From positions 416,001-480,000 of the forward strand of contig CBDCWC010000003.1 in the NCBI GenBank assembly GCA_965223295.1: DNA of 64,000 bases, written 5' to 3'. This DNA is from Nitrospirales bacterium (lineage in GTDB: Bacteria; Nitrospirota; Nitrospiria; Nitrospirales; UBA8639). Made by a program: the position numbers. Below are positions 23,601 through 26,600 of the stretch, piece after piece (the stretch's first letter is position 1; each line of letters starts with the position of its first letter).

Positions 23601-26600
23601 CATTATTTCCAGCTAACTGCGCGAGTTGCGATACACGATTATGGGATGATCTTGTTCCATTTATCTGCCAAGCCTGCTGGGAAACGGTTACGAAAATTTC
23701 AGGACCATGCTGTACACATTGCGGTGTCCCATTTCATTCATCTTCTGCCTTACAGCACAGTCCAACCCATACATGCGGATCTTGTCGAACAAAACCCCCA
23801 GCCTTTGCCCAAACCTGGAGTCTCTTCCCCTACCAATCTCCACTCAAGGAAGCGATCGTCTTATTCAAATATCGTGGGAAACGTTCACTGACAAGACCAT
23901 TGTTGCAAGCCATGATTTCTGTGCTACCGACACTACCAACTCTTGATCTACTCATGCCAGTTCCGCTCCATCCACAACGCTTACGCGAACGTGAATATAA
24001 TCAATCAGCCTTATTGGCGCATAGGCTGAGTCAACACCTCAAGATTCCTTTACTTCTATCCTGTCTTCTCCGCACGCGAGCCACTGTGCCGCAAACGTCG
24101 CTCACGAGAAAAGAACGTCTCACAAACCTTCGCAAGGCGTTTGCCATCAGAGATGTCTCTCGCATCAAAGATCAACGCATCCTTTTGATTGACAATGTCT
24201 TCACTACCGGCACCACACTTCATGAATGCGCCAAAACCCTTCGGAAAGCCGGTTCCGGTCCCGTCTATGGGTTAACCTTAGCTCGCATGCTGTAAAAACT
24301 TTTTCCCTCTTTTCAATTCACTGGATTTACGGTATATACAGGGTTTATTCAGACCCTCGGGGGCCTCAATCTCATGCCTATCTATGAATTTCTCTGTGAA
24401 GACTGCCGAAAGCACAGTACGTATTTAATTCTTCAGGGCCACTCCTCCACGCTATCCTGCAAGCATTGCAAGAGCCAACAATTGGAACGCATCATGTCAC
24501 GCTTTGCATCCCCAAAATCCGAAGAGGCCCGCATGGAAGCCCTGGCCGATCCCAGTAACTTTGGGGACGTCGATGAAAACGACCCCAAAAGCATGGCTCG
24601 TTTCATGAAAAAGATGGGCAAGGAAATGGGAGAAGACATGGGGGAAGATTTTGAAGAAGCGATGGAATCAATGGGAGAGGGTGGCCAGGAAGAGGACAGT
24701 ATGAGTCTTCCCGATATGGGTTGAAGCAATCGTCATAAGATGTGAAATACCTAGGCAAACAGACGAAATGTCCACACCTACTATAGAAAGTGGTGTCTTA
24801 AAATGGAACACCCAAGGTGGACAACACCACTTGACTTTTTTTCATCTTTGAGTAAGCTACACTGTAGTTTTTAATACCAGTCTTTCCAGAAAAATCGACT
24901 CTAGTCATGAGTAACTTCGCCGGGCAATATTATTGCAAAATCGATGAAAAAGGCCGGTTTGTGGTGCCGACCCATATCAGAGAAGATATCGAGGTCAACG
25001 GCAATAGTCTCATGTTTCTCAAAGGCCAGGATCTGCCAGTCTTAGCCTACACCAAGCCTGAGTGGGATCATTGCCTCCAAAAAGCCAAAGACACACTAGA
25101 TGAAGACCAGCGTCGGCTGTTTATGTATCACATGGTCTCGGAAGCCACACCATCAGAAATGGACCGTGCGGGTCGAATTCTCATTCCTAGCCGGTTACGG
25201 AAACTCATTCCTGTCGATGATGATCAAGAAGTCGTCATTGTCGGCATGTTCCACCGCCTAGAAGTCTGGAACCCTTCGGAATGGCGCCTGTTTGCCCGCA
25301 AGAATGAGGAAGCCTACGAACAAAACCTGGGCAAAATCCAGGGTATCTTATAAGTCAAAGCGCTTCTGCTTTTACCCTCACTCGTTACACATCCTCTCAT
25401 CCTTTACTCCCTCTACACGTGAGACCTATCCGAATCCCAGTGCTTCCCCAGCTTCAGCGAAGGAAGGGAAAAGGGGGGTTAGTGTTGATCACTCGTCGTT
25501 CCCAAGGGTCCCGAGCTTCTGCCAGTAGACAAGATTGGACAGGGTTAGGCGGCGACACCCTCGCTCCAAACGAACTATTTGTGGTGTTACCTCTACCACC
25601 CAGCATCAACCATCAATATGCTACCGTGAATGGGCGGCGAGTGCTTTCCTCTAAAGGGCGTCACTACAAACATGCTGTGGCAAAACATCTTGAAGCCATC
25701 CTGCACAGATCCCCCTACCGAGCAGATTTTTTTGAAGGTTTAGGGAGACATTCTCTCAGTCTCTCAATACGCTTCTATTTCAAAACAGCGTTGCGGCGAG
25801 ATTTAGACGGTGGGCTCAAAATCACGCAAGACGCCATCTGTCAAGCGATCAGTTTGAATGATAACCGGATCACCGAAATCCATCTGCACAAGGACTTAGA
25901 CACCGACCGCCCCAGAATCGAATGCACTCTGACCCTCCAACAACTTCTCTCCGTGAAACCCAAAACTTCTCGCCGACGGCTCAATGCCGTCCTTCCCCAA
26001 AATCACTAAGCTGGCTTATTACTACAATTAGGGGTCAGACTCGAATTAAATGGCGCGGGATGTACCTCATGTGCTCTATGGTTGGAATTAATTCGAGTCT
26101 GACCCCTAATACAAAAAATTAACGACATTTATCGGGAGGCAAAGGCTCGGGAGAGGGAAGGGAGGATGACAGCCAGCGGATGTTTGAGATTGCGTTTGGG
26201 TTGTTTGGCCAGAGCAGGAAAGTAGAATCCCATTTTGCGTCCTATGCGATGTCGAACCATGCCGGGTAGCCAAATACAGTCGCCAAGATAATGGAGTTTG
26301 ACAGACACCTGAGCATCTACAGATATCGGCGGGACTTGGTCTTTGGTAAATTCAACAAGCATGCCCTGTGTACTGACATTGATCACCCGCCCCTTACAGA
26401 CCACGCCTTGGCCACAGCGAATCACCACCGGCAACACTTGTTTTGGCGTGACCGTTGCGCGTCTGACGGCTCGTCGATCTTTCTGCGGGACAGGAATGGG
26501 ACGGCGGGAATCCGTTTTAAGAAGCGTGGATTGTCTCATGACGATGAGTCCGACGAACCCTGTTCCAGCAATTCAAACACCTTCCAGGCTTCATCTTCAC

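Follow-up and report, generated by a model that had tools for sequence, protein, structure and literature searches.

A chromosomal RusA as the probable replacement of RuvC across the order Nitrospirales

The mraZ-rusA locus and its predicted product

The window analysed was a stretch of 64,000 nucleotides from a Nitrospirales genome that is 100% complete in three contigs and contains a single RusA match. The genome-wide survey's note had placed an mraZ-like gene and a RusA gene at positions 24907..26009, and both open reading frames were recovered there, the rusA frame beginning 65 bases downstream of mraZ. The features are listed below. Locus counts refer to loci in named genomes, which were the best 80 of 576 relatives.

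18780..23395, strand not assigned: conserved chromosomal upstream block with ABC permease (60 of 80 loci), LuxR-type regulator (64), dihydroorotate dehydrogenase, pyrD (64) and ABC ATPase (70)
23438..24295, + strand: ComF-like gene (double zinc ribbon and phosphoribosyltransferase), conserved upstream neighbour (72 of 80 loci)
24374..24724, + strand: FmdB-type zinc-ribbon gene, conserved upstream neighbour (PF09723, E 5e-9; 53 of 80 loci)
24907..25353, + strand: mraZ, 148 aa (PF02381, E 2.5e-24), directly upstream of rusA
25419..26009, + strand: rusA, predicted RusA-family Holliday junction endonuclease, 196 aa, GTG start (PF05866, E 4.2e-8)
25419..25568, + strand: basic N-terminal extension of rusA, coding and fast-evolving
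25794..25862, + strand: putative catalytic stretch of rusA, R126 R127 D128 x D130 G131 G132 x K134 ... D138 ... N147 D148, from alignment to 1q8r

The window also contains gap, pgk, tpi, obg, his genes, dnaG, rho, two IS elements and toxin-antitoxin genes, and no phage structural families were found among the 54 ORFs scanned. The conserved block is flanked by an IS integrase-core ORF, a PIN-domain ORF, a MazE/MazF-type pair and an IS6-type transposase (14388-18739 and 32303-32986).

The rusA product has a basic N-terminal tail of about 50 aa, a RusA core of 124 aa and a basic C-terminal tail of about 22 aa. The PF05866 match spans residues 58-171 with 34.3 bits, over the curated cut-off of 22.8, and the NCBIfam model specific to E. 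coli RusA gave 26.9, far under its cut-off of 200. The PHROG RusA-like profile matched with E 2e-14. A family profile (A1) was built from 27 RusA domains of order genomes, excluding the prophage-type proteins L004-L006, and it aligned end to end with E. coli RusA (1q8r) at E 9.6e-11. Furthermore, the RusA fold is defined by a mixed sheet of four strands that carries two helices on a single face, and the AlphaFold2 model (pLDDT 87.9) was assigned to this fold, its top seven Foldseek matches all being RusA chains (E 1.8e-9 to 1.6e-7).

In the alignment, R126, R127, D128, D130, K134, D138 and D148 correspond to R68, R69, D70, D72, K76, D80 and D91 of E. coli RusA, respectively. R127, D128, D130, K134 and D148 were invariant in 27 of 27 aligned proteins, and the motif was present in all 80 loci, in agreement with the survey's observation that the acidic D-x-D..K..D motif is kept. 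The position of E. coli N73 was occupied by Gly in 79 of the 80 loci and by Ser in one, and that of D90 by Asn (N147). Both the low RusA score and the change of the catalytic Asn to Gly had been flagged by the survey. R69, D70, D72, K76 and D91 are listed as critical in PMC10956419 (in part; here and below, this marks a source available in part), where N73 has a minor role. PMC1636454 (in part) names D90 in its introduction, assigns the cation site to D70, D72 and D91 in its results, and reports that the E. coli enzyme needs N73 to resolve junctions optimally. N73 contacts phosphate and R69 binds DNA (PMC10956419, PMC1636454; both in part).

The protein might accordingly be viewed as a weak or dead nuclease, retained as a DNA-binding factor co-regulated with MraZ, and the replacements N73→G/S and D90→N, the low Pfam score and the long basic tails would suit such a role. 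However, the equivalents of D70, D72, K76 and D91, critical according to PMC10956419 (in part), and of R69 are invariant, and close relatives within the same subfamily carry the canonical Asn. This explanation was considered highly improbable.

The core showed pN of 0.065-0.19 against pS of 0.60-0.88 in 33 pairs, pS being near saturation, which points to strong purifying selection. For the N-terminal extension the values were 0.24-0.44 and 0.56-0.94 (33 pairs), as expected of a region that is coding but less constrained than the core. An open frame of 58-104 codons lies upstream of the core in the 27 loci listed. The tails differ between the families of the order, with no conservation across families.

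Distribution and chromosomal context of ruvC and rusA

The order sample comprised 151 genomes from four families (f1 to f4, f1 including the study genome) and 27 genera. The outgroups were 160 other Nitrospirota genomes and 71 class sisters in 15 families, with three genomes common to both. In the study genome, the RuvC search gave no match at E<=1, and a profile built from 50 Nitrospirota RuvC proteins found none in the six frames (best E 1.1). Among the 151 order genomes there was one weak match, which was rejected as a cellular RuvC because it adjoins a RecT-like gene and scores as a phage RuvC-like protein. Cellular ruvC was therefore detected in none of the 151 order genomes, whereas 66 of 71 class sisters and 152 of the 160 remaining Nitrospirota genomes had it, and the survey's claim that the order lost the gene holds on these larger samples. 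In one phylum family (f15, e.g. G167 and G175), RuvC matched with E 1e-16 to 1e-23, compared with mostly 1e-40 or better elsewhere, and represents a divergent RuvC lineage.

All 20 outgroup loci compared (the best-scoring 20 of 152) had the gene order yebC-ruvC-ruvA, while yebC was immediately followed by ruvA in each of the 30 order loci (the best-scoring 30 of 58; five from f1, 13 from f2, 12 from f3 and none from f4). The same 50-sequence profile detected no ruvC remnant in these 30 yebC-ruvA loci. In the study genome, yebC (C3:996863) and ruvA (C3:997726-998337) are separated by 107 bp, as the survey had indicated in describing them as adjoining at C3:996863-998337. The comparison of gene orders points to a clean deletion of ruvC between yebC and ruvA in Nitrospirales. 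The ruvB gene lies within 1.5 kb of ruvA in 22 of the 30 order ruvA loci. It was separated from ruvA in all five f1 loci examined, and in the study genome (C3:1274451) it is not adjacent to ruvA.

PF05866 matched 147 of 151 order genomes at E<=0.01, and 131 of them over the cut-off. The four genomes missed by Pfam were rescanned with A1, which revealed two whole genes and, in an 88% complete MAG, one gene with a frameshift, but nothing in a 92% complete MAG of 200 contigs. RusA of the A1 family was thus present in 150 of 151 order genomes. A1 matched 41 of 41 and 80 of 80 order genomes, compared with 0 of 160 other Nitrospirota and 0 of 71 class sisters; the generic PF05866 model matched nine of the 160. 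The best 80 of the 576 relatives in named genomes bore Nitrospirales, Nitrospira or Nitrospirota titles, save one Nitrospinota MAG and two entries titled "uncultured bacterium". In the Nitrospinota-titled MAG (L104), rusA nests within Nitrospirales and no RuvC match was found; this MAG is probably mislabelled or misbinned.

The mraZ gene was located directly 5' of rusA in 27 of 27 orthologous loci (30 were examined, the other three carrying prophage-type RusA) and in 79 of the 80 named loci, the remaining one ending at a contig edge. L004-L006, the three strongest Pfam RusA matches, were rejected as orthologues, being prophage-type and without mraZ. A search of viral contigs with family patterns confirmed no relative, and the best phage matches reached 29-33% identity. 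The Nitrospirales rusA is chromosomal and not prophage-borne, and it lacks neighbours of the phage replication/nin type; the survey's description of a single non-prophage rusA beside mraZ was correct. Moreover, pairwise rusA distances in 11 genomes tracked those of yebC (rho 0.81), ruvA (0.91) and mraZ (0.88), and housekeeping gene pairs gave 0.80-0.90 in the same comparison, consistent with inheritance of rusA in the manner of yebC and ruvA.

The orthologue of N. moscoviensis, NITMOv2_0960, is annotated as putative RusA and starts 8 bases past the end of mraZ (PMC6606698, in part). It is transcribed, with non-zero values in eight of nine samples and a DESeq base mean of only 2.4 counts, and the transcript means were 74 for rusA, 141 for ruvA, 164 for recG and 318 for mraZ (PMC6606698, in part). 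The proteome supplement for N. marina has rows for RuvA, RuvB, RecG and MraZ and none for RusA in its accessible part, and is uninformative, RuvA and MraZ having only 0-4 spectra (PMC8115632, in part). In the promoter scan, no signal exceeded that of shuffled sequences.

The gene at 24907-25353 is the only MraZ gene of the study genome. The survey's "mraZ-like" gene is therefore the neighbour of rusA as stated, and it is the genome's sole MraZ and not just a similar protein. mraZ was single in 14 of 14 order genomes. In the sister orders, mraZ was followed in 16 of 16 loci by a gene that we take to be rsmH-like, named by eye from its motifs, and no rusA was found there. It appears that mraZ moved off the rsmH/dcw cluster in Nitrospirales. 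Two TGGGA repeats 10 bases apart, presumably an MraZ-box-like motif, lie upstream of the rsmH-like gene (G000:C3:1789810-1789880); their retention suggests MraZ control in trans.

The nearest named relatives of the Nitrospirales RusAs belong to Chloroflexota (Thermomicrobiales, Roseiflexaceae and Anaerolineae) and Abditibacteriaceae. In two quick trees, the first without L004-L006, the Nitrospirales proteins formed one side of a branch with SH-aLRT of 92 and 91 (support below 95). This branch adjoins the Chloroflexota/Abditibacteriaceae group, far from phage RusAs, and no donor can be named. The Chloroflexota subfamily is large, chromosomal and often adjoins guaA (L180-L259; P0009, P0198-P0235), and it includes tandem two-domain proteins of about 270-300 aa, one of them from a named Roseiflexaceae. 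The 80 metagenome loci of the Chloroflexota/Abditibacteriaceae group have housekeeping surroundings: GMP synthase occurs in 45 and an RNA methyltransferase in 17, and neither mraZ nor any ruv gene was seen in them. RuvC is retained by all 17 Chloroflexi tabulated in 2012, these being other genomes than those with this RusA (PMC3403352, in part). The sister subfamily therefore probably occurs alongside RuvC and can probably be accessory. A possible path would therefore be gain of rusA as a spare, with ruvC lost afterwards. In addition, one order genome carries a second, tail-less copy of 124 aa (L336:1487-6977, G046:C3), located behind CHC2/toprim primase-like and DnaN-like (sliding-clamp) genes and beside an IS transposase, which indicates that a mobile route in or out exists. 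In the tree it falls at the base of the Nitrospirales side, a weakly supported placement.

Other junction-processing proteins and the preferred reading

None of the 151 order genomes, the study genome included, gave a RecU match. YqgF was absent from f1 (0/63) and f3 (0/21) and present in f2 (61/62) and f4 (5/5), giving 66 of 151 in total. These counts bear out the survey's statements that both proteins are missing from the study genome's own family and that two sister families keep YqgF. To our knowledge, YqgF/RuvX is nearly universal among bacteria; it was not found in any of the 84 genomes of f1 and f3. The study genome also carries YraN and a MutS2-like Smr protein. The survey's "only recognisable resolvase" is consequently valid for the canonical resolvases, and not overall. 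Hjc candidates were rejected, the matches being below cut-off and one of them being YraN. In f2, a conserved Cys-rich protein of 135-170 aa is encoded between ruvA and ruvB (L154, L156, L158, L161-L163, L170, L172, L174 and L176). It was rejected by inspection as an alternative resolvase, being Cys-rich with a signal-peptide-like start.

These proteins make it possible to read the exchange as a coincidence on one branch, with MutS2, YraN, YqgF where present and helicase-driven dissolution handling the junctions and RusA serving as an accessory nuclease for branched DNA. MutS2 of B. subtilis was reported to be RecU-like in action (cited in PMC11164402, in part), and a 2012 table lists 27 RuvAB-positive genomes that lack both RuvC and RecU (PMC3403352, in part). 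The retention of YqgF in 66 order genomes, the RuvC of tabulated Chloroflexota, where RusA may be accessory, and the relocation of mraZ as another change on the same branch also agree with this reading. However, the 84 genomes of f1 and f3 keep rusA without YqgF, and of 14 control genomes, 8 exceeded the cut-off for YraN and 9 that for Smr, most of these having RuvC as well. Near-universal retention under strong constraint, in genomes down to about 2 Mb, also fits a needed function. Coincidence was therefore judged unlikely.

RuvA was found in 58 of 61 order genomes and RecG in 147 of 151, with one RecG in the study genome. In E. coli, RuvA guards junctions against RusA, and ruvC mutants are suppressed only in part (PMC2265524, in part). 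RusA depends on RecG in E. coli genetics and makes no contact with it, and no partner is named in the accessible part of the source (PMC1636454, in part); RusA can substitute for RuvABC if RecG is present (PMC5055574). The RuvA proteins were compared using 30 order, 29 class and 20 phylum sequences. Order-wide differences were restricted to positions 88, 92 and 120, with none at 127 or 130, which are interface residues and are kept, nor at 55/56, which we take to be the acidic pin. Position 55 was E in 21, D in 5 and N in 4 of the order sequences. Residue 122, at the tetramer-tetramer interface, was G, S or A and never E in all 79 Nitrospirota sequences. RuvA of the study genome's genus has Asn in place of the conserved Glu55 (G000:C3:997726-998337, L151-L153). 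Co-adaptation of RuvA through the Asn55 and Ser122 of the study genome's protein was rejected order-wide, since position 55 varies within the order and 122 is non-Glu throughout the phylum.

The survey had described RusA as working with RuvAB, and this part found no support, because RuvA blocks RusA in E. coli, RusA needs RecG there, and RuvA lacks an order-wide change. A coupled arrangement was weighed, in which RusA, possibly by means of its basic tails, would act on RuvAB-bound junctions as part of a RuvAB-RusA resolvasome. It might explain why RuvA is kept in 58 of 61 genomes, and why 22 of 30 ruvA loci have ruvB no more than 1.5 kb away, despite the antagonism of RuvA and RusA in E. coli. 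The chromosomal copies have open extensions of 58-104 residues that are missing from the mobile copy, and the G, S or A at RuvA 122 might weaken octamers. In contrast, rusA never occurs inside the ruv operon, the tails are unconserved between families, RuvA differs order-wide at 88, 92 and 120 only, and no partner of E. coli RusA is reported in the accessible part of PMC1636454. We therefore regard such coupling as doubtful at best.

Because the order genomes are kin, the pattern of presence and absence amounts to one loss and one gain on a single branch. The genomic comparison strongly supports that ruvC was lost, and a single chromosomal, non-prophage rusA gained, on one and the same branch, and this part of the survey's claim stands. 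That RusA took over the function of RuvC is our best inference, drawn from distribution and conserved residues. Taken as a whole, an order-wide non-orthologous displacement of RuvC by RusA appears probable. Several points count against it: the N73→G/S and D90→N differences, the retention of RuvA although it blocks RusA in E. coli, the RusA-RuvC contrast being one evolutionary event however many genomes are compared, the very low read counts of the N. moscoviensis transcript, and the presence of MutS2-like and YraN nucleases together with a sister Chloroflexota subfamily that is chromosomal and probably coexists with RuvC.

In the displacement model, the Nitrospirales ancestor would have gained a single rusA, belonging to a subfamily that elsewhere sits on the chromosomes of Chloroflexota and Abditibacteriota. 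The gene would have been fixed behind an mraZ itself relocated from the dcw cluster, and ruvC lost by clean deletion out of yebC-ruvC-ruvA-ruvB. RusA is presumably a Mg2+-dependent homodimer with D128, D130, K134 and D148 as the catalytic set, and would now be the main canonical Holliday junction resolvase of the order. Since RuvA shields junctions from RusA in E. coli and shows no order-wide adaptation here, action on RuvA-free junctions with RecG, as in E. coli, is likelier. RecG would move or present such junctions, or RuvAB would release them. RecG is present in 147 of 151 genomes, and recG and rusA are both transcribed in N. moscoviensis, as a RecG-RusA pathway would have it. No RuvABC-style complex would form, and RuvAB would be retained for branch migration and fork reversal. 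A bolder proposal is a third kind of bacterial resolvasome, consisting of RuvAB and a domesticated RusA whose basic tails would allow cutting of RuvAB-held junctions past the RuvA block, with the position behind the relocated mraZ linking junction resolution to cell-division control. It is offered as a long shot.

Comparison with known systems

The displacement model supplies a concrete candidate for one known gap, that of bacteria possessing RuvAB while lacking both RuvC and RecU, and does so in nitrifiers of global importance, the nitrite-oxidising Nitrospirales. It would mean that a phage-type resolvase was fixed as a core gene throughout an order. Since RuvA blocks RusA in E. coli, Nitrospirales would be a natural experiment on cutting RuvAB-bound junctions without RuvC. 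A further outcome is a chromosomal RusA subfamily of Chloroflexota that had gone unstudied. Ca. Nitrospira defluvii had been tabulated as RuvA+ RuvB+ RuvC- RecU-, and the general proposal made for these 27 organisms was either RecG-RusA or a resolvase yet unknown, RusA being unscored there (PMC3403352, in part); PMC1193525 (in part) omitted RusA as rare and prophage-associated. Desulfurobacterium, Thermovibrio and Hydrogenivirga are also RuvAB+ RuvC- RecU- (PMC3403352, in part) and are candidates for an independent RusA swap. The literature search, with most subscription papers outside its scope, found no description of the Nitrospirales swap, which as an order-wide event is apparently undescribed; the Chloroflexota/Abditibacteriota subfamily is uncharacterised as far as searched.

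One close counterpart is E. coli RusA of the DLP12 prophage (1q8r, 2h8c; PF05866). The predicted Nitrospirales protein resembles it in fold (Foldseek E 2e-9, TM 0.81-0.86 by target), in the N-terminal P-PPS-N motif and in the equivalents of R69, D70, D72, K76 and D91. It differs in its identity of 25-27%, the changes N73→G and D90→N, and its basic tails. The E. coli gene is prophage-borne and normally silent (PMC1636454, in part), whereas the Nitrospirales rusA is a core chromosomal gene, transcribed in N. moscoviensis, in cells without RuvC.

Every component of the swap is of a known kind, with RecU and Aquifex RusA as precedents. The rusA of Aquifex is not known to be prophage-borne. Aquifex aeolicus likewise has RusA without RuvC or RecU (PMC3403352, in part), and its enzyme is active (cited in PMC10956419, in part). 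It has no RuvA or RuvB (PMC1193525, PMC3403352; both in part), unlike Nitrospirales, which keep RuvAB and RecG and where the swap covers the whole order with the deletion site visible. In Firmicutes and Mollicutes, RecU replaces RuvC as a non-orthologous resolvase whose gene is distant from the retained ruvAB (PMC3403352, PMC1193525; both in part). The Nitrospirales arrangement is similar in these respects but involves an unrelated nuclease family, RecU being found in 0 of 151 order genomes, which also separates it from the RuvAB-RecU system. The chromosomal RusAs of Chloroflexota and Abditibacteriota, the nearest named relatives, have the same RD-D-G-G-K motif as the Nitrospirales proteins and likewise sit among housekeeping genes, GMP synthase occurring in 45 of the 80 loci, but those 80 loci contain no mraZ or ruv genes and the tabulated Chloroflexi keep RuvC. 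In contrast to the RuvABC resolvasome, Nitrospirales have no ruvC between yebC and ruvA, and the resolvase of the order is probably the RusA encoded behind mraZ.
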